64,000 nt of DNA. Origin: Vicinamibacteria bacterium. GTDB lineage: Bacteria > Acidobacteriota > Vicinamibacteria > Marinacidobacterales > Marinacidobacteraceae. A program made the translations under genes and the position numbers. Each line of letters opens with the position of its first letter. Positions within the stretch are counted from its first letter, which is position 1. The notes below the pieces were generated by a model, which worked only from the letters and a program-made list of their open reading frames with translations, had not been told where the DNA came from and searched no databases. Positions 28,203 to 36,085 of this stretch are shown piece by piece. Location of the stretch: contig OZ246946.1 in NCBI GenBank assembly GCA_965232015.1, forward strand, positions 245,562 through 309,561, given 5' to 3'.

Positions 28203-29155
28203 TTACGGGGCGGCCCGGACCAGAACCGGTTCCCGAGCGGGCTCCGTCTGCGGCTTCGCGGCCCGGCGGGGGGTCTCCTCCGGGTCATGGAGGAAACGAA
28301 GCAGGGCTCCGATCACGCCCCGCAGCTCCCGCCGGTGGACGACCCGGTCCAGCATCCCGTGCCGGAGGAGGAACTCGGACCGCTGGAATCCTTCGGGCAG
28401 CTCCCCGCGGATCGTCTGCTGGATGACCCGGGGCCCCGCGAACCCGATGAGCGCTCCCGGTTCGGCGATGTTCAGGTCGCCGAGCATCGCGTAACTGGCG
28501 GTCACTCCGCCGGTTGTCGGATGGGTCAGCACCGAGAGGAAGGGCAGCCCCTCGTCGTCGAAAGCGGCGAGCGCGGCCGAAATCTTGGCCATCTGCATCA
28601 GCGACAGCGCCCCTTCCTGCATCCGGGCGCCTCCGGAGCAGGACACGATGATCAGCGGGCGTCGCTCGTCGAGCGCAGTCTCGATGGCGCAGGTGATCTG
28701 CTCGCCGACCACGACGCCCATGCTGCCGCCGATGAAGCCGTACTCCATGACCGCGAGGACGACCGGAGTGCGTTCGATCCGGGCGCGGACGACGAGGATG
28801 GCGTCGTCGAGTCCGGTCTTCTCCGAGGCCTTGCGGAGCCGAACGTAGTAATCCATCCGGTCGCGGAACCGGAGCGGATCGTTCGATCGGATCCCGCCCG
28901 GTAGCTCGCGGGCGGTGCCCCCGTCCACGAGCATCCGGACCCGGTCCCGCGCCGAGAGCCGCATATGGAAGTCGCATCGGGGGCAGACCTCGAGGTTCTC
29001 CCGGAGCGCCCGGCCGTAGATGATCTCGGAGCAGCCGTCGCAGCGGAGGAACAGCCCCTTCGGAACCTGGGGGCGGGGGCGCTCGGAGGCATCCGGAGCG
29101 GAAGCGACGGGCGCGGGAGCGGCCTCGCCCAAGGGAGTGGACACGGGGATTGGCA
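28203..29155 (-). CDS. accD: acetyl-CoA carboxylase carboxyltransferase subunit beta
   Basis: Zn ribbon CDGCSEIIYGRALRENLEVCPRCDFH and carboxyltransferase motifs GGSMGVVVGE, GGARMQEG. Confidence 0.9.
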
Positions 29156-29235
29156 TCCTAACAGAGTCATGGGCCCTCGCGACGGAGCCAGAATCGGTAG
29201 CGCCCACCGGAGTCCGTCTGACCTCCCGGTAGTGT

Positions 29236-29458
29236 CGGAGCGCCGGACTCCAGTCCCTTGCCTGCGCGCCGGACTCCAGTCGCTTGCCGGAGCGCCGGAC
29301 CCCAGTCCGGCAATTCCACGCGAGGCTGGACCTCGGTGCCTGCACTCCTCGGCCTGCGCGCCGGACTCCAGTCGCTTGCCGGCGCGCCGGACTCCAGTCC
29401 GGCAATTCCACGCGAGGCGGCTCCTCGGTGCTGGCGCTCCTCCGCCGGCGCGCCGGCA
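29236..29458. repeat. REP-like repeat cluster (about 7 units)
   Basis: Repeated GCGCCGGACTCCAGTC(C/G)... units in the same orientation. Confidence 0.85.
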
Positions 29459-29462
29459 ACCG

Positions 29463-29657
29463 CTACCGGCTGGGCTCTCCGGTCCTCGCCGCGAGGTCCG
29501 CGAGGAAGAGCATGGCCCCCTCGATCCGGGCGACCCGCTCGCCCAGCGAGCGCAGATCCGCACGGATCGCCCGCTGCCCGGAGATGATGAGCGTGGCAAG
29601 GCCGATGCCCAGTGTGGCGCCGACTGCGATGATGGCGATGACTTCGGAGCTCACATT
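29463..29657 (-). CDS. possible 64-aa small membrane protein (MSSEVIAIIAVGATLGIGLATLIISGQRAIRADLRSLGERVARIEGAMLFLADLAARTGEPSR)
   Basis: GTG start. One TM helix plus an amphipathic helix. Fills the 220-nt gap between the REP cluster and the RNA ligase. No clear RBS. Confidence 0.3.
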   Translation of the reverse strand, partial: NVSSEVIAIIAVGATLGIGLATLIISGQRAIRADLRSLGERVARIEGAMLFLADLAARTGEPSR

Positions 29658-29681
29658 GGTGACTCTAGCGTGATGGTGGTC

Positions 29682-30377
29682 CCCCGCGGTACGGCGTACT
29701 CTCCGCGCCCCGTGGCCGCCCTCAAGTACCCCAAGACGCCCTACTGGCCGTGGTCGCCGTCCATCGGCCGCGATGACCGGGTGCTCCGGGATCCCTCCGT
29801 CTTCGTGGGGCCGGAAGTCGTCGTCACCGAGAAGCTCGACGGCGGCAACACTCTGCTCCACCGCGGCCAGGTCTATGCGCGCAGCGTCAGCACCCCGTCG
29901 AGCGCCGCGTGGATGGCGATGGTCCGGAAGCACCACGCCTGGAAGGTGACAGAGCCCAATGTCCTGCTCTACGGGGAGGACCTCTACGGGGTCCACTCGA
30001 TCGAATACGACCCCATGCCGGAGGACCAGACTTTCCGCGCCTTCGCCCTCCGCACCCCGGAAGCCGGCTTCGCTTGCTTCGACGACCTGAAAGCGTACGC
30101 GGACGCCCGCGACATCCCGGTCGCCCCGACGCTGTTCCGCGGTCGCTTCGACTCGGTGTCGGCTATCCGGCGGTTCCTCGAGACCGCCCACCGCCAACCC
30201 TCCGTCCTCGGCGGCGAGCGGGAAGGGATGGTGCTTCGCCCGGCCGGCGCCTTCCAGGAAGGCTCTTTCGGTCAGCTCACCGCGAAGTCGGTCCGCGCGA
30301 ACCACGTCCAGACCGACCGCCACTGGACCCGAAACTGGCGCCCCTGCCAGCTCCTCCGGGCGACGGCCACGGGGTGA
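29682..30377 (+). CDS. RNA ligase family protein (Rnl2-like nucleotidyltransferase, PF09414-like)
   Basis: Motif I VTEKLDGGN (KxDG). Convergent with the PIN-ATPase-MTase operon. Confidence 0.65.
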   Translation, partial: PRGTAYSPRPVAALKYPKTPYWPWSPSIGRDDRVLRDPSVFVGPEVVVTEKLDGGNTLLHRGQVYARSVSTPSSAAWMAMVRKHHAWKVTEPNVLLYGEDLYGVHSIEYDPMPEDQTFRAFALRTPEAGFACFDDLKAYADARDIPVAPTLFRGRFDSVSAIRRFLETAHRQPSVLGGEREGMVLRPAGAFQEGSFGQLTAKSVRANHVQTDRHWTRNWRPCQLLRATATG

Positions 30378-30401
30378 ACGGATGCGACCAGCGCCTACGG
30401 A

Positions 30402-30908
30402 TCACCGGGCCGGCTTGCCGACCTTGCTCTGGTGCTGGGGACAGAGCTGCTCCAGAGGTACGCCGAGACGCTCCAGGAGAGCGCTCTGCTCGTCCCAGTC
30501 GCTGTCGGTGGCGTTAAGGATCGCTGCGCCGGCCTTCACGGCTACGGCCAGGAACTTCCGATCAGACGGATCGAGTTCGTTCTTGGGGAGCTCTGCGAAT
30601 CCTCGCGACTCGTCCGATGGCGTGATCCGTACCCACTCCGTTGCCGCGGTGTGCGATCCGCCCATGACGGCGATGCAGAATTCACTTCCAACGCCTCGGC
30701 CTGCTCGATTGTCGAGAAGTCTCTTCCGGTACTCACCCAGGACGCCCCACGACGCATCGACACAGACGATGGTCCGGCTGCGAGTCACTGCTTCGAGTCG
30801 CGCCGTGCACGCCCGTTGACAATCCAGGTCGGCGTGTGTGTCCACATCCCCACAGCTTCCCGCCTCGGCGGCGATCAGAACATTCGTGTCCACGACAACG
30901 CGTGTCAC
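30402..30908 (-). CDS. PIN-domain nuclease
   Basis: MTRVVVDTNVLIAAEAG and ATDSDWD acidic residues. GTG start overlaps the ATPase stop (GTGA). Confidence 0.8.
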   Translation of the reverse strand: MTRVVVDTNVLIAAEAGSCGDVDTHADLDCQRACTARLEAVTRSRTIVCVDASWGVLGEYRKRLLDNRAGRGVGSEFCIAVMGGSHTAATEWVRITPSDESRGFAELPKNELDPSDRKFLAVAVKAGAAILNATDSDWDEQSALLERLGVPLEQLCPQHQSKVGKPAR

Positions 30909-32296
30909 GCCTGGTCCTCCATCCGCCGCCGCATTCCCGCCTCCTGGATCGCGAACACTTCCGCGAGCTCATCGCCGAAAAAGTCCTTGGGCCAATTCTT
31001 GATCTGACCGTAGCGATCGAGTTCGAGGTCGTTGAGTTGAGCTCCACTGTCGCCCGTAGAAACGAAGAAGAGTCTCACGTCGGCGGAGCCCTCTGCTCCC
31101 TCGGCCCTGCGCCGTTGAATTCGACGCAGGAGGTGCTCGCTGTGGCTCTCCATGACGATCTGAACATCGCGTGTCTGCGCCGCGTGCAAAAACACATCCG
31201 CCAGGATCGCTTGTGCGGAAGGATGAAGGTGGATCTCGGGTTGCTCCAAAAGGACAATGGAACCTTGGGGAACGTGATACAGAAGGACAAGAATCGGCAA
31301 GACCTGAGAGACCCCGAACCCGACATCGGTGAGCGTGGACTCGCATCCATTCGGGCTGGTCGTCACGAGTGCCCGCCACAGGTTGGACTGCTCGTCGATC
31401 CGTACGATCCGAAAACCTGACACGAGACCCATTTCCTTGAGCCAGTGAGCGATGACCTCCTGAAACGGACGGCCGCGCCCCTTCTCGTCAATTAGTTCCT
31501 CGCCGGACTCGGTTGCCGCGAGCAGAGCATCAATAGTCAGTTCTCCGCGTGTGCCGACATCGGTAGGCCGGACTCCGCCGAAGCGATAGAATCGGTGAGG
31601 GCGCGCCCGTAGCGGACCTAGGTATGAGATGGAGTCCATCATGATTTCATACAGGAAGGGCGCAATGCGGAGTTGACGTATGACCTGACGGTCTTTTCTG
31701 CTCCCGGTGTCCTTGGTGCGGGAGGCACCGGCCCAGTAATGCGTTGGAAGAACGTAGCTCTTGGCCGGCGCGATTCGACCGCCGCGGTGTGAAGAGAGTC
31801 GCCTCACCTCCTCAATCGGCCCGTCGTTGTTGATGAACTCATAGCCGTCGGCTTCGTGTGCGCGCCGAATGCCGATCCAATGGTCCCCGACGTGATAACA
31901 GAGGTCGATCGTCTCGGGAGCGGACCCGCGTAGGCGCACGCTGGACTCCAGACGGTGCTCCGGCGCGCTCCTTAGCGAGGGATGGTCGGCACGAAACGGT
32001 CGGCGATGGCGTTCGTACCAGCTCACCGTCCACGACAGGGCGAGACTCTGGTCGTGTCGGTGAATCAGGTCTCGGTAACTGCCGAGATTGACGAGTTGGT
32101 CTGGACCTCCGAAGTTCAGCGTGACGGCGGGGTCTGTCGCGTTCCTCGTCTGCTTCAGCATGAGGAGGAACTGGAACAGGCTGCTCTTGCCGGAGCTGTT
32201 CGTCCCGAAGATGCCGGTGAGCTGGCCGAACTCCAAGTCGACAGCCTTCCATGCCTTGAAGTTCTCGAGGTGAAGTCTGGTGATCACGGTCCCTCC
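30905..32296 (-). CDS. ABC-type (OLD/Septu/PARIS-like) AAA ATPase, AAA_15/21 with DUF3696-like C-terminal region
   Basis: Walker A GIFGTNSSGKSSLFQ and Walker B / H-loop IVLLEQPEIHLHPSAQ. GTG start at 32296 with strong RBS AAGGAGGG. Lower GC (about 57-60%) than the backbone. Confidence 0.8.
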   Translation of the reverse strand, partial: GGTVITRLHLENFKAWKAVDLEFGQLTGIFGTNSSGKSSLFQFLLMLKQTRNATDPAVTLNFGGPDQLVNLGSYRDLIHRHDQSLALSWTVSWYERHRRPFRADHPSLRSAPEHRLESSVRLRGSAPETIDLCYHVGDHWIGIRRAHEADGYEFINNDGPIEEVRRLSSHRGGRIAPAKSYVLPTHYWAGASRTKDTGSRKDRQVIRQLRIAPFLYEIMMDSISYLGPLRARPHRFYRFGGVRPTDVGTRGELTIDALLAATESGEELIDEKGRGRPFQEVIAHWLKEMGLVSGFRIVRIDEQSNLWRALVTTSPNGCESTLTDVGFGVSQVLPILVLLYHVPQGSIVLLEQPEIHLHPSAQAILADVFLHAAQTRDVQIVMESHSEHLLRRIQRRRAEGAEGSADVRLFFVSTGDSGAQLNDLELDRYGQIKNWPKDFFGDELAEVFAIQEAGMRRRMEDQA

Positions 32297-32354
32297 TTCG
32301 CCGGGATGGCGCCGAACGGTGACGGGCGGCTGCGCCCAAGCCCGTTTCCGAACT

Positions 32355-33747
32355 CTACCGGCGGATGAGGCCAAGGACGAACTCCTCGTGCATCCGTCGC
32401 TCGATCCCGGACCTCGTCGCTGCGCCCCAGCGAGCCGGCATCATCCGGCGGTCGCGATCCAGCCGCCGCCGACCGATGCCCGCGACCTCGAAACCGGTCT
32501 CCTCCGCGAGCGCCGCCAGCGCGAGGTGGGTCTCGACGTCGAGGCCGCGCAGCACGGAAGTGCCCACGACCACGATCGCCGCCCCTCCCGGCCGGAGGAC
32601 GCGCTCCGTTTCGCGCAGCACGGCCGCCATGTCCCCGAAGTAGCGCCGGAGAACCGCGGCCTTGCGCCGGTCGAGCTCCGCGAGGGCCGCCACCGTGCGT
32701 CCGCAGCGATCGGGCAGGTCGCCCCGGCCGCCGCCGAGCACGGCGTCGTGCCCGACGTAGCGCCGGCGCAGGCGGGTCAGATCGGCAATCCTCCAACCCA
32801 GCCACACCAGCGAGAACTTGTGCGCCCGCATGTAATCAATCGCGCCGTTGGCGTAGGGCGGCGACGTCACGACCAGATCCACGCCCTCGGGCGGCAACCC
32901 GGTGTCCGTCGCCGGGGCGTCGAGCACTCGGGCGGTCGGCGCGTCGTCCCCGGCCCCGGCCGGAGCGCCCCGGGACCGGACGATGCGGCGGAGACGGCCC
33001 TCGAACACCGCCAGCGCCGGTTTCGGCTGCTTCGCCTCGACCCGGTGGGGCCGGGTGTGGGCCAGATCCCGCGCCAGCGAGACGCCACCCGACTTGGCGA
33101 TGATCGTCGAAGAGAGGACGACCTCGAGGAATCTCCGCGTTCGGGGCTCGCGCACGCCGGAAACCGCGGCGGCGAGCGCTTCCAGCTCGAGCTGCTGCGC
33201 CGGGCGGAACCAGTAGTCCACGAACTTCCGCGTTGCGGCGTCGAAGCGGCGGTCGAGGTCGCGCGTCAGCCCGGCGGCATCGCTCCGCAGGCGGGCGCCG
33301 GCGAGCGCGAGAACATCGCGTCCCGCCTCCGCGGCGGCTCCCGGGTCCGGCGGAGCCAGCTTGGCGAGCGCGATCCGGCGGGCGAGCGGATCAATATCGC
33401 AGCCGATGGCTCGCCGCCCGAGCGACTGCGCCTCGACGAGGGTCGTTCCGGAGCCCGCCATCGGGTCGAGCACGGCGTCGCCGGGCCGCGACAGGACCTC
33501 GATGAACCGGCGGGGCAGGGCGGGGGGGAACTTCGCCGGGAACGGATGCCAGCGGTGGCGGCCGGACGAGCCCCGGCGCCCGTGGAAGCCGAGATCCGCG
33601 TCGAGCAGCGCCCGGAGCCGCTCGCCGACCGGTTGCACCTCCGCGTCGGCCGAAGTCTTCGAGCGCGGCGCTGCCGGGTCGGGGAGCGGGAACAGCGAGG
33701 GCGCCTCGGGCACGGTGCGTCCGGCGGCGCGATTGCGGCCCGGCATT
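32355..33747 (-). CDS. site-specific DNA methyltransferase (N6-adenine/N4-cytosine, PF01555-type, circularly permuted motif order)
   Basis: AdoMet motif HPFPAKFPPALPRRFIEVLSRPGDAVLDPMAGSGTT comes first, then catalytic TSPPY and RVLRPGGAAIVVVG. Alternative start at 33809. Confidence 0.8.
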
Positions 33748-33772
33748 GTGTGCTGGCGGCGCGGCCCCCGGA

Positions 33773-33792
33773 GGCGCCATTGTCCCGCGCCG
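33773..33792. repeat. 20-bp direct repeat GGCGCCATTGTCCCGCGCCG, left copy
   Basis: Identical 20-mer at 36066-36085. The pair brackets a 2.3 kb segment. Confidence 0.7.
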
Positions 33793-33809
33793 CTGGCGCC
33801 CCGGCTCAC

Positions 33810-34400
33810 GAGGCTGAAGCGCGCGGCGTGACATCTGCCGCAAACGACCCGGTCGAGGAGTCTTCACCCCCTTTTGGACGCTCGGTCGTCGCCTGCCCCC
33901 GCTGCGCCGTTCGTCTGCGTGAGGAGTGGGATGGCGGTGATGCAGCCGGACGTGTGGCGGGTACGCGCGGGCGGGGACGGCCCATGAACTCCGACGACGC
34001 AGTCTTGACGCTCATCGTGCTTGGCCGGTGGAACTGCGGCATCATCGTGGCGTGGTAACGGATGATCCGGCGCGACACCCGGCATGAGTTCGGCGCACTC
34101 CGCCGGGATCTCCGTCGCGGGTTCGCGCAGGCCCGCCAGGTACGACTCGAACGCCGGCGGGAGTTGGTGAGCCCGCTTTCCCGGGATGGAGCAGCGTCTT
34201 CGTCGGCATGACGACGGCGACCTCGACGCCATCGGTGGCGAACCAGTCGCACGTGTTCACCATCACGGCCTGGATTGCCCGTGGCTCACCTCTGCCACTG
34301 CACCTCGCGGGTGCGATGCGTGGTGGCAGCATACGAAGAATGATGCCGAGCCGACGCAACCTGTGAGCTGTGCGCCTCAGCCTGCCAATCGGTAGGATCA
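33810..34400 (-). pseudogene. gene remnant: several partial frame-shifted protein-like fragments, no intact ORF
   Basis: Fragments VMVNTCDWFATDGVEVAVVMPTKTLLHPGK, FESYLAGLREPATEIPAECAELMPG and IRYHATMMPQFHRPSTMSVKTASSEFMG lie in three different frames. Confidence 0.3.
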
Positions 34401-34820
34401 GCGGTCCCTGTTCGACCAGAGCGCTCGGAAACCCTCCTGGGTGAAGTGCCTGTCTCCGGTGAGGACATCGCTAATGTCGAGTTTCCGCATTACGACCATG
34501 GAGACGCAATCCGTCAGGCTGTAGCCCTTGTCCTCTCGCTGCTCGTACAAGTCCAAGCCGGCCAGGAACGAGCTCCGGGTCTGGGGTTCTACCCGGATGC
34601 TGCGGTCGTCGAGGATCTCTCGCACCGTGATCGTGGCGCGCTTTCTCGCACGGGATCCGAGCGTGCACAGTGCGGCAAGGAATTCGACCAGCACTTCATC
34701 TGTAGTCACGAGTTGGGCCCCTGCGACTGCGTTCCCGGCTCTTGTCGCGGCCCTGTGCCAAGGATCCCTCGGATTCGCCACGGCGATCCAGTACGCCGCG
34801 TCCACGAAGACTAGCTTCAC
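34398..34820 (-). CDS. PIN-domain VapC-like toxin
   Basis: MKLVFVDAAYWIA...TTDEVLVEF...TDCVSMVVMRKLDISDVLTGDRHF. GTG start overlaps the stop of the upstream partner. Confidence 0.8.
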   Translation of the reverse strand: MKLVFVDAAYWIAVANPRDPWHRAATRAGNAVAGAQLVTTDEVLVEFLAALCTLGSRARKRATITVREILDDRSIRVEPQTRSSFLAGLDLYEQREDKGYSLTDCVSMVVMRKLDISDVLTGDRHFTQEGFRALWSNRDR

Positions 34821-35722
34821 GTGTCGTCCACGCCGTAAATGTAGTGATCCAGCCGAGCGGACAAGTCACTTGGGAGCTTCTCCCACTCCTCATCGGGGAC
34901 ATCGGAGAAGATTTCGGCGATGCGCGCCTGGATAGCCGGTGCGTCCGTCAGAGAAGACGGTCGTCCGTCATCAACCAGAGTGATCGAGTCGGCCAGAGTG
35001 ACCTCGGTCAGAGCACCCATGGGTTCGAAGCGCCCCCTGCCAGCCACTCGGATCCGCGCCACCCGGTGTTCCTTGAGCGCCTCCGTGACAACCGCTTCCT
35101 GAGGCTTTGTGAAGCGGACGGGGATGCATCGCCCGTCATCCGTCCAGAGCTGAAACTTCCACCGGTGGACATCGGCTTCGAGCACCCGCCCTTCCAGGTA
35201 AATCGAGTCCGGGTACGGCTGGTCCATGAGGGAGCGGACGACGGTCCGCGTCTTATCGGACACGATCGTTGTCGGTCGGTTAGGGGAAGTGAAGGAAAAA
35301 CGCGCGCCCGCCGGAAGGTCTCGTCCCAACCCCTGACACACCCGCACGACGTGCATCGGAACACCTCGTGGAGGAGGCTCATCGCGATTGGCCGCTCCCA
35401 GCGTCTCGGAGGTCAACCGGACCGCTTCCTCCATCACCGTGGGGGCATCAAGCAGGGGAGTAGGGTCGGGCGAACGCGGCGCGAGCCGGATCGACACGCT
35501 TCCCGCCTCGATCGCCGTGAAACAGAGCTGAGTCCGTTCGTCGAAGCCCTTGGGGACGCGCTCGCGTGCCGGATGGCGCACCTTCCAGACAGCGCGAGCC
35601 GCCTCGGTCACGATCTTCTGGAACTGAAGCACGGTCCGGAGGGCACCCGCATCCAGCGCTCCACCCGCGTAGGGCTCCCCCCCAAAGTGGAGCCGCACGA
35701 GCTCCGAGCGTCCTGTCGTCAT
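34817..35722 (-). CDS. 301-aa hypothetical protein in the antitoxin position upstream of PIN toxin; no recognisable antitoxin fold
   Basis: MTTGRSELVRLHFGGEPYAGGALDAGALRTVLQFQKIVTEAARAVWK... Stop overlaps the PIN start. RBS GAGGGA. Confidence 0.5.
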   Translation of the reverse strand: MTTGRSELVRLHFGGEPYAGGALDAGALRTVLQFQKIVTEAARAVWKVRHPARERVPKGFDERTQLCFTAIEAGSVSIRLAPRSPDPTPLLDAPTVMEEAVRLTSETLGAANRDEPPPRGVPMHVVRVCQGLGRDLPAGARFSFTSPNRPTTIVSDKTRTVVRSLMDQPYPDSIYLEGRVLEADVHRWKFQLWTDDGRCIPVRFTKPQEAVVTEALKEHRVARIRVAGRGRFEPMGALTEVTLADSITLVDDGRPSSLTDAPAIQARIAEIFSDVPDEEWEKLPSDLSARLDHYIYGVDDT

Positions 35723-35775
35723 GAGCGGCCGTCCCTCGGACCAAACGCGGCGAAATCCGCGCTGCCCAGTGTTCG

Positions 35776-35797
35776 CCGACAATATACATTGACACGG
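35776..35797 (-). promoter_or_regulatory. AT-rich imperfect palindrome CGACAATATACATTGACACGG upstream of the 34817..35722 / PIN operon; candidate promoter (-10 TATATT on minus strand) / operator
   Basis: The only AT-rich patch in an otherwise 70% GC intergenic region, about 55 nt upstream of the start codon. Confidence 0.3.
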
Positions 35798-36065
35798 CTC
35801 GTGTCGGGGCCCTGTGCCTGGCTGAGTCGCCCCCGAGGTCCCGGCGACAGGAGATCGCGCCCGGCGCGGAACAGTTCGGCCGAGTCGGGGACGACGAGGA
35901 GGCCGAGGCCCTCGGGCGGGAACACCTTGAGAGGCAGGCGGTCAGGGCGGAAGGGGAGGAGATGCGCACGGGCGAGGAGGCTTGGTGCCTCGCCGATGAG
36001 GACCATCTGCTGGCGGGGCTGGCCGCCATCACCGCGCGCCCCGACGCCTCGGGGCCGCGCTTCTC

Positions 36066-36085
36066 GGCGCCATTGTCCCGCGCCG
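36066..36085. repeat. 20-bp direct repeat GGCGCCATTGTCCCGCGCCG, right copy
   Basis: Identical to 33773-33792. Confidence 0.7.

Follow-up and report, generated by a model that had tools for sequence, protein, structure and literature searches.

In a Vicinamibacteria bacterium, the functional unit of a defence hotspot between accD and fadD is in our judgement likely to be a variant of the anti-phage system HEC-03 with three genes, whose products are ABC ATPase, PIN nuclease and RNA ligase, the adjoining DNA methyltransferase being a neighbouring orphan of the NgoMIV family; this reading is drawn from sequence comparison. The stretch of DNA analysed, hereafter the window, comprises 64,000 nt (assembly GCA_965232015.1, contig OZ246946.1, positions 245,562-309,561, forward strand).

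Gene content of the accD-fadD interval

The features of the interval, in window coordinates, are as follows:

28203-29459, minus strand: accD, flanking the locus on one side
29673 or 29712 to 30377, plus strand: RNA ligase (PF09414, by Pfam)
30378-30401: spacer between the convergent stops of the ligase and PIN genes (24 nt, sequence read)
30402-30908, minus strand: PIN nuclease, putative HEC-03 effector (168 aa, PADLOC HEC-03A)
30905-32287, minus strand: ABC ATPase of HEC-03 type with a DUF3696 C-terminal helix (460 aa, PADLOC HEC-03B)
32288-32354: 67-nt gap separating the methyltransferase and ATPase genes, which includes the ATPase ribosome-binding site GGAGG
32355-33809, minus strand: N6_N4 methyltransferase, assigned as an orphan Type II enzyme (Pfam, PADLOC MTase_II)
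From about 36143, plus strand: fadD, flanking the locus on the other side

The three consecutive minus-strand genes that an earlier note on this DNA had placed between accD and fadD (PIN nuclease, ABC ATPase, methyltransferase) are all present, and the defence context it proposed is borne out, the ATPase-PIN pair matching HEC-03. Its start coordinate, 29463, is part of a spurious antisense open reading frame. The operon with GTGA overlaps that it described holds at one junction, the ATPase stop and PIN start overlapping at GTGA 30905-30908, but not at the other: the methyltransferase and the ATPase do not overlap, because the ATPase starts at GTG 32287, 67 nt past the methyltransferase stop (32355-32357). 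This GTG is preceded by GGAGG, and both the HMM matches and the deposited 460-aa protein begin there. Translation of the methyltransferase probably begins inside the open reading frame, either at ATG 33746 or close to 33711, the latter following the annotation of the related locus L086. A terminator-like hairpin was searched for in the 24-nt spacer between the ligase and PIN genes, and none was found.

The low-GC island of the earlier note shrinks to the ATPase (GC 0.60, GC3 0.72) and PIN genes (GC 0.64, GC3 0.72), whereas the methyltransferase (GC 0.75, GC3 0.89) is backbone-like and the ligase (GC 0.70, GC3 0.90) looks native. Recent horizontal acquisition can likewise be retained for the ATPase-PIN pair only; the accD-fadD interval is a variable, long-standing defence hotspot common to related genomes. 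Another low-GC stretch, which the earlier note had not listed, lies at 34398-35782 and contains a second PIN module according to Pfam and PADLOC profiles.

An ATPase-PIN pair of the HEC-03 type

The ATPase was correctly described as DUF3696-type, Pfam detecting AAA_15 (2.4e-24), AAA_21 (4.8e-20) and DUF3696 (3.8e-08). Its best PADLOC match is HEC-03B (PDLC04148, 3.7e-151), residues 31-487 of the long open reading frame aligning with profile positions 2-455 of 458; NsnB (1.9e-60), AriA (6.8e-27), GajA (5.7e-10) and Old (4e-09) score lower. The proposed comparison with PtuA, AriA, GajA and OLD models gave weak and partial matches to AriA, GajA and Old, but placed HEC-03 ahead of them. The Walker A motif (GTNSSGKS), the Walker B motif (EQPE), the signature GxGxS and residues Q46 and H382 do not vary across 24 homologues, and the AF2 model (pLDDT 77.6) shows an ABC ATPase fold and matches the heads of GajA, PtuA, Rad50, SMC and OLD with E about 1e-10. 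The PIN nuclease call also stands: the protein matches HEC-03A over its full length (PDLC04147, 1.8e-42), Pfam PIN_3 falling marginally under its cut-off (9.1e-06, 26.9 vs 27 bits). Conservation across 70 homologues is 93-100% at D7, E59, D116 and D135 (likewise at D51, D113 and D137), and the catalytic acidic set is therefore intact. The PIN gene lies directly 3' of the ATPase gene in 75 of 80 distant HEC-03 loci.

HEC-03 (Hma-embedded candidate 03) is an experimentally validated anti-phage system first found embedded in methylase-containing Hma systems: the Pseudomonas cichorii version lowers plaquing of several phages in Escherichia coli, needs both genes to do so, and is toxic when over-expressed or induced (Payne et al., bioRxiv 10.1101/2024.01.29.577857). 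The window proteins are 44% (ATPase, 1e-112) and 43% (PIN, 5e-38) identical to the tested P. cichorii ones, and we assign the pair, judging from these matches, as HEC-03 orthologues with intact catalytic motifs, the ATPase being the presumed sensor or regulator. The PADLOC run thus runs contrary to the view that the system has no name. As in HEC-03, the ABC ATPase ends in a DUF3696 tail and its gene overlaps that of a stand-alone PIN protein lying next downstream; unlike the published system, that of the window lies outside any Hma system, and the two-gene published form is extended, here and across an entire clade, by a conserved PF09414 RNA ligase that is included neither in the HEC-03 paper (10.1101/2024.01.29.577857) nor in the PADLOC HEC-03 models.

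Several other systems share part of this architecture. In Menshen, NsnB is likewise an ABC ATPase ending in DUF3696, and two of its DUF3696 helices are predicted to clamp the PIN-like domain of NsnC (PMC12065111). The PIN of Menshen, however, lacks catalytic activity and forms a fusion with a BECR RNase, whereas that of the window is stand-alone and keeps D7, E59, D116 and D135, and Menshen has a ParB/DUF262 sensor (NsnA), whereas the ORFs neighbouring the window system have no DUF262 match in Pfam. Membership was rejected on these grounds: an NsnB score well under the HEC-03 score, no NsnA, and an unfused PIN that retains its acidic residues. PARIS, Gabija, Septu, retron I-A and OLD also combine an ABC ATPase sensor with a nuclease effector, and AriB (PARIS) and P2 OLD are reported to cleave tRNA. 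Their effectors are nevertheless TOPRIM or HNH enzymes rather than PIN, and they have no ligase partner; PARIS, Gabija and OLD, whose nuclease partner or fusion is of TOPRIM (or DUF4435) type, were set aside because the partner here is a PIN domain, for lack of any TOPRIM domain in the window system and for the weak, partial AriA, GajA and Old matches. MADS was rejected as well (NCBIfam MAD3 39 vs a cut-off of 420 bits, over the P-loop region only; PADLOC mad3 3e-11 and mad2 9.3e-13, far below the HEC-03 and MTase_II matches), as was VapBC, no small VapB-type antitoxin lying upstream and the overlapping upstream gene encoding the 460-aa ABC ATPase.

The RNA ligase as a proposed third partner

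Read from ATG 29673 the ligase has 234 aa, and from GTG 29712, the start used in relatives, 221 aa; it matches Pfam RNA_ligase (PF09414, 9.8e-16). Among 20-36 homologues, motifs I (TEKLDGGN, consensus KxDGxN), III (LYGED), IIIa (FYAFAL), IV (EREGVVLR) and V (KSVR) vary little or not at all, and the protein is accordingly predicted to be a catalytically intact covalent nucleotidyltransferase, namely an ATP-dependent RNA ligase. The earlier description as Rnl2-type stands as regards the RNA ligase family (PF09414 being the 'Rnl2' family). As to the subtype, the accessory domains sought (C-terminal in T4 Rnl2, N-terminal OB in Rnl5) are absent, so that the protein consists of the nucleotidyltransferase domain alone, and a fold search with its poor model (pLDDT 59.6) gave only weak matches to Rnl3, Rnl5 and Rnl2, none of them significant (E at least 0.04).

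The gene does sit tail-to-tail with the PIN gene, convergent across the 24-nt gap, and the RNA-cleavage and RNA-repair pairing that this had suggested proves to be the best-supported part of the earlier note, the synteny with ATPase-PIN extending to dozens of loci across phyla. The order ATPase, PIN, ligase, with all three adjacent, recurs in 28 of the 80 distant loci, from many phyla, and is co-directional in every one of the 28, with ligases 59-67% identical to that of the window; about two-thirds of the sampled HEC-03 loci have no ligase. The ligase-linked ATPases form a single clade in the tree, within which the window ATPase falls. ATPase and ligase identity matrices are correlated (Mantel r = 0.83, p <= 0.001), which host phylogeny may partly explain, and correlations across the genes of the module range from r = 0.75 to 0.83. 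When the search was reversed, ligase homologues of at least 57% identity had ATPase and PIN directly upstream in 14 loci, a PIN or PIN remnant only in six and neither in five, while none of those at or below 55% had an ATPase or PIN upstream; more distant relatives adjoin repair genes of RlaP, kinase or macro type. On IMG/VR contigs, divergent HEC-03 loci, one of them adjoining an integrase, carry a ligase of 22-26% identity in the same position and form a second, divergent mobile group with the same architecture. The ligase persists in about nine loci whose ATPase and/or PIN genes have decayed or are missing (L085, L087, L090, L092, L093, L097, L108, L109 and L119), and the converse loss is seen only in L023, at the base of the clade, with intact ATPase and PIN but no ligase. 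Taken together, the ligase appears to be a conserved, previously undescribed third partner of ATPase-PIN, although an accessory and not an essential one, because the two-gene P. cichorii system defends without it and about two-thirds of loci lack it.

Within the lineage of the window, the ligase lies on the strand opposite to ATPase-PIN (in the window, L001, L002 and L086), and is therefore not co-transcribed with them here. Its GC3 is 0.90-0.92 in all lineage members, against 0.65-0.82 for ATPase-PIN, and it may thus now be an independent housekeeping repair gene; it is nonetheless found 24 nt from the PIN gene in every member having ATPase-PIN. Compared with L086, the spacer before the ATPase is about 100% identical (bins 32300-32399), the ATPase body 43-86%, and a divergent patch in the C-terminal half of the ligase coincides with the ATPase-PIN allele swap. 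L085 and L087 have lost ATPase-PIN and retained the ligase. The inverted orientation and native composition of the ligase, next to ATPase-PIN alleles that are swapped or deleted, suggest that it acts on RNA ends generally rather than as an allele-specific subunit.

Functional pairing of an RNA nuclease with an RNA ligase is also known from T4 Pnk/Rnl1 facing PrrC, where the repair enzymes are phage-encoded and the nuclease host-encoded, and from bacterial Pnkp/Hen1, where end healing is required. HARP, a PIN-like RNase P, forms a nuclease-ligase gene pair with Rnl3 (PMC12153264), but in a tRNA-processing context, with a ligase of another family (PF18330) and no ATPase. A predicted conflict system combining PIN_3, an ATP-grasp RNA ligase, an ATPase and HNH (Burroughs and Aravind 2016, as cited in PMC5499597) comes close to the logic proposed below, its ligase being suggested, in that citing paper, to neutralise toxic nucleases; as far as the citing paper describes it, that system differs in having an ATP-grasp ligase and HNH, whereas the window has a PF09414 nucleotidyltransferase and no HNH. 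The Deinococcus radiodurans pMP1 ligase WP_010884034.1 (about 210 aa, annotated 'RNA ligase family protein') is also reduced to the nucleotidyltransferase domain and is 36% identical to that of the window, but its operon partners are a TIGR02452 macro-like protein and an AAA ATPase rather than an ABC ATPase and a PIN. We take this operon to be the radiation-induced DRB0098-0100 repair operon, its AAA family ATPase presumably having a kinase-like role.

Mechanism and alternative readings

In the working model, an oligomer of the ATPase would use its C-terminal DUF3696 helices to hold the PIN, in the way predicted for NsnB and NsnC of Menshen, and would act as an infection sensor that, once infection is sensed, releases or activates the PIN RNase; the latter would cut an essential RNA (most likely tRNA or rRNA) and thereby stop translation. 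Cleavage by metal-dependent PIN nucleases yields 3'-OH and 5'-phosphate ends. Such ends are direct substrates of ATP-dependent RNA ligases, with no end healing required, and on this account host RNA would be resealed by the ligase, whether to buffer a leaky PIN or to allow the cell to recover. That the ligase reseals RNA cut by the PIN nuclease is thus probable.

The ligase could instead be a partner with a task other than repair: it could aid the attack, for instance by joining or circularising cut RNAs so that they no longer function or by adenylylating RNA ends, or it could sense breaks in RNA. Or else the PIN could nick DNA that the ligase then seals. The synteny and co-evolution data would fit equally, the protein is without the additional domains by which Rnl2 and Rnl5 recognise nicks, and the D. 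radiodurans relative DRB0100, annotated as DNA-ligase-like, is presumably to be counted on the same side. We give this reading only a small chance, as more distant family members occur in RNA-repair contexts (RlaP, kinases), ligase-only remnants outlast ATPase-PIN, for which a benign or protective activity fits better than a toxic one, and two-gene systems defend without a ligase. Somewhat less probable is that the ligase has here become a domesticated stand-alone repair gene, only the two-gene HEC-03 working as defence: convergent orientation, native GC3 and retention in L085 and L087 after ATPase-PIN loss would agree with this, but not the constant 24-nt distance from PIN, the 59-67% identity to the system-linked clade (at most 55% to free-standing ligases) or the divergent patch coinciding with the allele swap. 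It seems very improbable that ATPase-PIN plays no part in the phage defence of its host and is instead an addiction module of the toxin-antitoxin kind. The PIN is VapC-like, induced HEC-03 is toxic and a second PIN module lies nearby; yet a HEC-03 homologue lowered phage plaquing with both genes required, the upstream gene encodes a large ABC ATPase instead of a VapB-type antitoxin, and the swapping of alleles inside a frame that stays conserved, as seen here, is what defence loci typically show.

The slimmest chance is left to the architecture put forward in the earlier note, in which methyltransferase, ATPase and PIN would form a novel restriction-modification-like system, methylation marking self and ATPase-PIN attacking unmodified invaders. 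The three genes are co-oriented (a 67-nt gap, then the GTGA overlap) and also adjacent in L002 and L086, and HEC-03 was discovered inside methylase-containing Hma systems. This reading is nevertheless largely refuted. No methyltransferase homologue was found in any of the 80 distant HEC-03 loci nor in the relative L001, which has ATPase, PIN and ligase only, while L085 keeps the methyltransferase with its ATPase deleted; clustering of ORFs in HEC-03 neighbourhoods revealed no other conserved neighbour, and ten sampled upstream neighbours include no methylase. The neighbourhood analysis proposed earlier thus upholds the ATPase-PIN pair (75/80) and a ligase in part of the loci (28/80) but not the methyltransferase (0/80), and by the measure the earlier note itself named, co-occurrence of the genes elsewhere, the triad fails. 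The methyltransferase is 98% identical to that of L086 in protein and 99-100% in DNA, the ATPase only 62%, and it stays near-identical between genomes that differ by about 40% in their ATPase-PIN alleles. VapC-type PIN proteins are RNases and would not be guided by methylated DNA, and the MADS-type scores given above lie far under the cut-off, both of which also count against the triad.

With HEC-03 plus ligase preferred as the functional unit, the methyltransferase is best considered by itself. It matches N6_N4_Mtase (PF01555, 3.2e-22) and PADLOC MTase_II (5.7e-31), and its description as a circularly permuted N6/N4 enzyme is confirmed: motif I (DPMAGSGTT) is N-terminal to motif IV (SPPY), and the C-terminal part of PF01555 aligns with the N-terminal part of the protein, which is therefore permuted relative to that profile. 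Homologues of 57-64% identity immediately precede PF09015 NgoMIV-type endonuclease genes, whereas the methyltransferase of the window is solitary, a tblastn search of the 64 kb with two enzymes of homologous loci finding no NgoMIV-type enzyme (best E 0.22). Since its family pairs with such enzymes, it is therefore regarded as an orphan Type II methylase, left over from a restriction-modification system and unrelated to HEC-03. In the close relative L087, an NgoMIV-type endonuclease adjoins a methyltransferase pseudogene.

An ATPase-PIN pair of the HEC-03 type

The four genes located between accD and fadD, in a window whose GC content is about 70%, had been read in the earlier note as a low-GC island, in which a methyltransferase, an ABC ATPase and a PIN nuclease form a minus-strand operon with stop/start overlaps, convergent with an RNA ligase.

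Genes of the locus (window positions, strand, description)
28203-29459, minus, accD, one border of the locus
29673 (ATG) or 29712 (GTG) to 30377, plus, RNA ligase (PF09414, 9.8e-16)
30402-30908, minus, PIN gene, 168 aa
supported start GTG 32287, minus, ABC ATPase, 460 aa (AAA_15, AAA_21, DUF3696)
32355-33809, minus, N6_N4 DNA methyltransferase
from about 36143, plus, fadD, other border of the locus

This observation is only partly right, as the low GC is restricted to the ATPase and PIN genes (third-codon-position GC, GC3, of 0.72 each), while GC3 looks native at 0.89 in the methyltransferase, 0.90 in the ligase and 0.85 in accD. The stop codon of the ATPase does overlap the start codon of PIN in the bases GTGA, but the ATPase and the methyltransferase do not overlap: the former starts 67 nt beyond the stop of the latter, at a GTG codon located eight bases past a GGAGG, where both the HMM alignments and the deposited protein begin. 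A promoter and terminator scan gave no informative signal in such high-GC DNA. The interval between accD and the ligase harbors tandem 26-nt and 92-nt repeats (29233-29431; core GCGCGCCGGACTCCAGTC, five copies), within a 500-bp repeat-rich stretch (29200-29700) that resists alignment with a relative, despite 99% identity in the flanks, and into which the long accD ORF probably over-extends.

The ATPase-PIN pair is an already known system, HEC-03, composed of an ABC ATPase and a VapC-like PIN protein; several coliphages plaque less in its presence, both genes are required, and the system is toxic when induced (Payne et al., bioRxiv 10.1101/2024.01.29.577857). The PADLOC profiles of HEC-03 cover both proteins of the window end to end (3.7e-151 for the ATPase, 1.8e-42 for PIN), and identity to the tested Pseudomonas cichorii HEC-03 reaches 44% for the ATPase (1e-112) and 43% for PIN (5e-38). 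The next-best PADLOC matches of the ATPase are Menshen NsnB (1.9e-60), PDC-M55A and AriA (6.8e-27), followed weakly by GajA and Old, all below HEC-03. Across 24 ATPase homologues, the Walker A, Q-loop, signature motif, Walker B and switch histidine are invariant. The AF2 model of the ATPase (pLDDT 77.6, pTM 0.80) matches the heads of GajA, retron PtuA, Rad50, SMC and OLD (E about 1e-10), and in a PDB sequence search the sole matches were the N-terminus of OLD and, weakly, PtuA. Residues D7, E59, D116 and D135 of PIN are kept in 93-100% of 70 homologues, and the nuclease is therefore predicted to be active. The pairing itself is conserved, with a PIN gene directly downstream of the ATPase in 75 of 80 distant loci that carry HEC-03-type ATPases elsewhere (one genome per species). 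It should be mentioned that the names used in PADLOC (PDLC04147/PDLC04148) are swapped relative to the paper, as its 'HEC-03A' matches PIN and its 'HEC-03B' the ATPase, while HEC-03A in the paper is the ATPase.

Membership of MADS, Menshen, PARIS, Gabija or OLD is ruled out by the HMM scores and by missing partner domains, the MADS-type models scoring far below their cut-offs. In Menshen, paired DUF3696 helices are predicted to clamp a PIN-like domain (PMC12065111). The PIN of this system (NsnC) is dead, in contrast to that of the window, which keeps its acidic residues.

The methyltransferase as a neighbour in the same hotspot

The methyltransferase had been taken, together with the ATPase and PIN, as part of a single unnamed defence system, a proposal that does not hold: besides the identity of the pair as HEC-03, a tblastn search found homologues of the methyltransferase only in the closest relatives of the window (L002-L004, L085 and L086), and none in the 80 distant loci. 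All-against-all clustering of ORFs from 84 loci recovered the ATPase, PIN and ligase, with antisense shadow ORFs of these three, and no conserved gene beyond them, and ten upstream neighbours sampled were unrelated housekeeping genes or had no Pfam match. Within the lineage, the two parts come and go independently. For example, ATPase, PIN and ligase are present in the relative L001, which has no methyltransferase. In L085, where a clean deletion of window positions 30722-32368 joins the methyltransferase to a PIN remnant, this gene outlives the ATPase, and in the close relative L087 (10710-12867) the ATPase-PIN pair is gone and the methyltransferase is a pseudogene, whose frameshifted fragment adjoins an NgoMIV-type restriction endonuclease at the edge of this hotspot, the view ending at a contig end.

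The methyltransferase belongs to a large, well conserved family, and homologues 57-64% identical to it are followed by a PF09015 NgoMIV-type restriction endonuclease, often with overlapping stop/start codons; no such endonuclease is encoded within the 64-kb window. Given this pairing, the independent gain and loss in the lineage and the absence from the 80 loci, the gene is a solitary Type II methylase located in the same hotspot as the ATPase-PIN pair, and its membership of the system is ruled out by synteny, lineage presence/absence, composition and pairing with NgoMIV-type enzymes. A 60%-identical homologue is also found at another locus (L172, 1018-7383). There it immediately follows a radical SAM gene of 972 aa, which is itself preceded by a 190-aa gene and by another ATPase with AAA_15/AAA_21; with a NotI-type restriction-modification pair nearby, this region is another defence-island context.

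A conserved RNA ligase partner

A conserved ligase partner is absent from both the HEC-03 description and PADLOC. A homologue of the ligase (59-67% identical) directly follows PIN, on the same strand, in 28 of the 80 distant loci, whose hosts include Vicinamibacterales, Binatia, Thermodesulfobacteriota, Gemmatimonadota, Alpha- and Gammaproteobacteria, Spirochaetia and Latescibacterota, among others. Between the window and these loci, identity is lower for the ATPase (42-48%) and PIN (40-53%) than for the ligase. A neighbour-joining tree was built from 95 ATPases; its 41 ligase-linked sequences all fall in a single clade that includes the window ATPase, with four exceptions: two decayed loci (L042 and L044), one whose contig ends inside the ligase (L055), and the basal locus L023, with an intact ATPase-PIN pair and no ligase. 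Pairwise identities of the three proteins correlate over 42 complete loci (ATPase-ligase r = 0.83, Mantel p <= 0.001). Loss is asymmetric, as the ligase is kept without an intact ATPase-PIN pair in about nine loci, and L023 is the only case near the clade of an intact pair lacking the ligase.

Metagenomes were also searched from the ligase side. Among 25 loci with at least 57% ligase identity, the ATPase and PIN are both directly upstream in 14, and PIN alone or a PIN remnant is found in six, two of which are on contigs too short upstream for an ATPase. The remaining five have neither; three of these (L108, L109 and L119) are on contigs where a PIN gene or more would have fitted, and two (L091 and L130) are cut by a contig end. 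Neither gene was found beside the ligase in any of 55 loci where its identity is at most 55%; the neighbours there are RlaP, an AAA_33 kinase-like protein and various unrelated genes. A relative on the Deinococcus radiodurans plasmid pMP1 (L192, 117530-120233; 36% identical) shares its operon with a TIGR02452 protein and an AAA family ATPase. Such repair-type neighbours are also seen at L165 (4201-5322) and L123 (8071-8556), with an RlaP nucleotidyltransferase or an AAA_33 kinase-like protein. A second, far more divergent HEC-03 group (ATPase 34-37% identical) occurs on IMG/VR contigs with its own PF09414 ligase, only 22-26% identical, that overlaps or directly abuts the PIN gene. In two loci of this group (L175, 2909-6221; L177, 3797-7607), adjacent genes overlap or abut, with a DUF4145 gene after the ligase in L175 and a tyrosine integrase immediately upstream in L177.

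The ligase keeps motifs I, III, IIIa, IV and V, and consists of the nucleotidyltransferase domain alone. The label 'Rnl2-type' given to it in the earlier note is appropriate at the level of the Pfam family and not beyond: its AF2 model is poor (pLDDT 59.6), Foldseek matches to Rnl3, Rnl5 and Rnl2 are not significant, and a PDB profile search returned no match. PADLOC has no model for the ligase and reports such loci as two-gene HEC-03, an annotation practice that the present analysis corrects; the ligase is nowhere mentioned in the HEC-03 paper (bioRxiv 10.1101/2024.01.29.577857). Among the papers covered, a set without Krishnan et al. (2020) or the 2016 study of Burroughs and Aravind, none ties DUF3696, HEC-03 or PF09414 to a partnering RNA ligase; an earlier in silico mention may exist.

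Why would a defence nuclease travel with an RNA ligase? The suggestion that the two proteins form an RNA-cleavage/RNA-repair pairing, made from their adjacency, is strengthened by a linkage that is conserved and, judging from sequence comparison, co-evolving, and all three proteins have intact catalytic motifs. An ATPase oligomer might sense infection and release or activate the PIN RNase, which would cut an essential RNA and stop translation. Metal-dependent PIN nucleases leave 3'-OH and 5'-phosphate ends, which an ATP-dependent ligase could reseal directly, either buffering leakiness or permitting recovery. We tentatively propose, as a reading somewhat short of probable, that a large, horizontally spread HEC-03 clade carries its own RNA ligase to reverse the RNA damage inflicted by PIN, i.e., a defence with built-in repair, in which the host arrests translation and then recovers, or tolerates a hair-trigger nuclease, the ligase being an enzymatic 'antidote' and not a binding antitoxin. 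However, two-gene HEC-03 works without a ligase, and the ligase of the window is convergent with, and compositionally distinct from, the ATPase-PIN pair. Neutralisation of nucleases by an RNA ligase encoded beside them was put forward by Burroughs and Aravind (2016, cited in PMC5499597) for a different operon, in which PIN_3, an ATPase and HNH accompany an ATP-grasp ligase. For many ABC-ATPase-coupled defence nucleases, PARIS and OLD among them, the current view is that tRNA cutting kills the infected cell or arrests it, and a widespread ligase-carrying HEC-03 subtype offers a directly testable case for whether a host may reverse such RNA damage.

SNF2 helicases lie directly upstream in two loci only (L013 and L015), and may reflect an Hma-type embedding. 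Several loci (L024, L028, L033, L036, L042, L055, L056 and L076) belong to genomes of Entotheonella, Porisulfidus and Palauibacter or to 'RHO' and 'CAR' bins, sources that are probably sponge-associated.

Allele turnover in the lineage

Related metagenome-assembled genomes share the order fadD, methyltransferase (when present), ATPase, PIN, ligase, accD, folC and proS. Compared with L086, DNA identity is 98.7-99.1% in the backbone and 99-100% in the methyltransferase, whereas protein identity falls to 73% for PIN, 62% for the ATPase and 90% for the ligase. The divergent tract extends from about 30500 to about 32150 (10790-12400 in L086), with one breakpoint in the conserved 5' end of the ATPase and the other in the PIN 3' end, and a separate divergent patch lies in the C-terminal half of the ligase (30000-30300). 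Across the four lineage members, GC3 is 0.65-0.82 in the ATPase-PIN pair and 0.90-0.92 in the ligase. This persistently low GC3 beside a native ligase, and a divergent tract in a 99% identical backbone, are read as the outcome of homologous recombination at the conserved ends of the ATPase-PIN cassette, which would have replaced it repeatedly while the surrounding frame, with the inverted ligase, stayed stable. The locus represents a clear case of defence-allele turnover, ATPase-PIN alleles of only about 60-70% identity being exchanged within a conserved frame.

The window also harbors a 2.3-kb insertion (33773-36085) that is absent from the close relatives L085 and L086.

Cargo of the insertion (window positions, strand, description)
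34398-34820, minus, VapC-like PIN gene, 4-nt overlap with the PDC-M32A-type gene
34817-35782, minus, 321-aa gene, PADLOC candidate PDC-M32A (2.6e-29)

No integrase is found in the insertion, whose cargo has a GC3 of 0.74-0.77. On either side stands the same 20-bp sequence, GGCGCCATTGTCCCGCGCCG, as a perfect direct repeat (33773-33792 and 36066-36085), of which the empty site of L086 has a single 19/20 copy.
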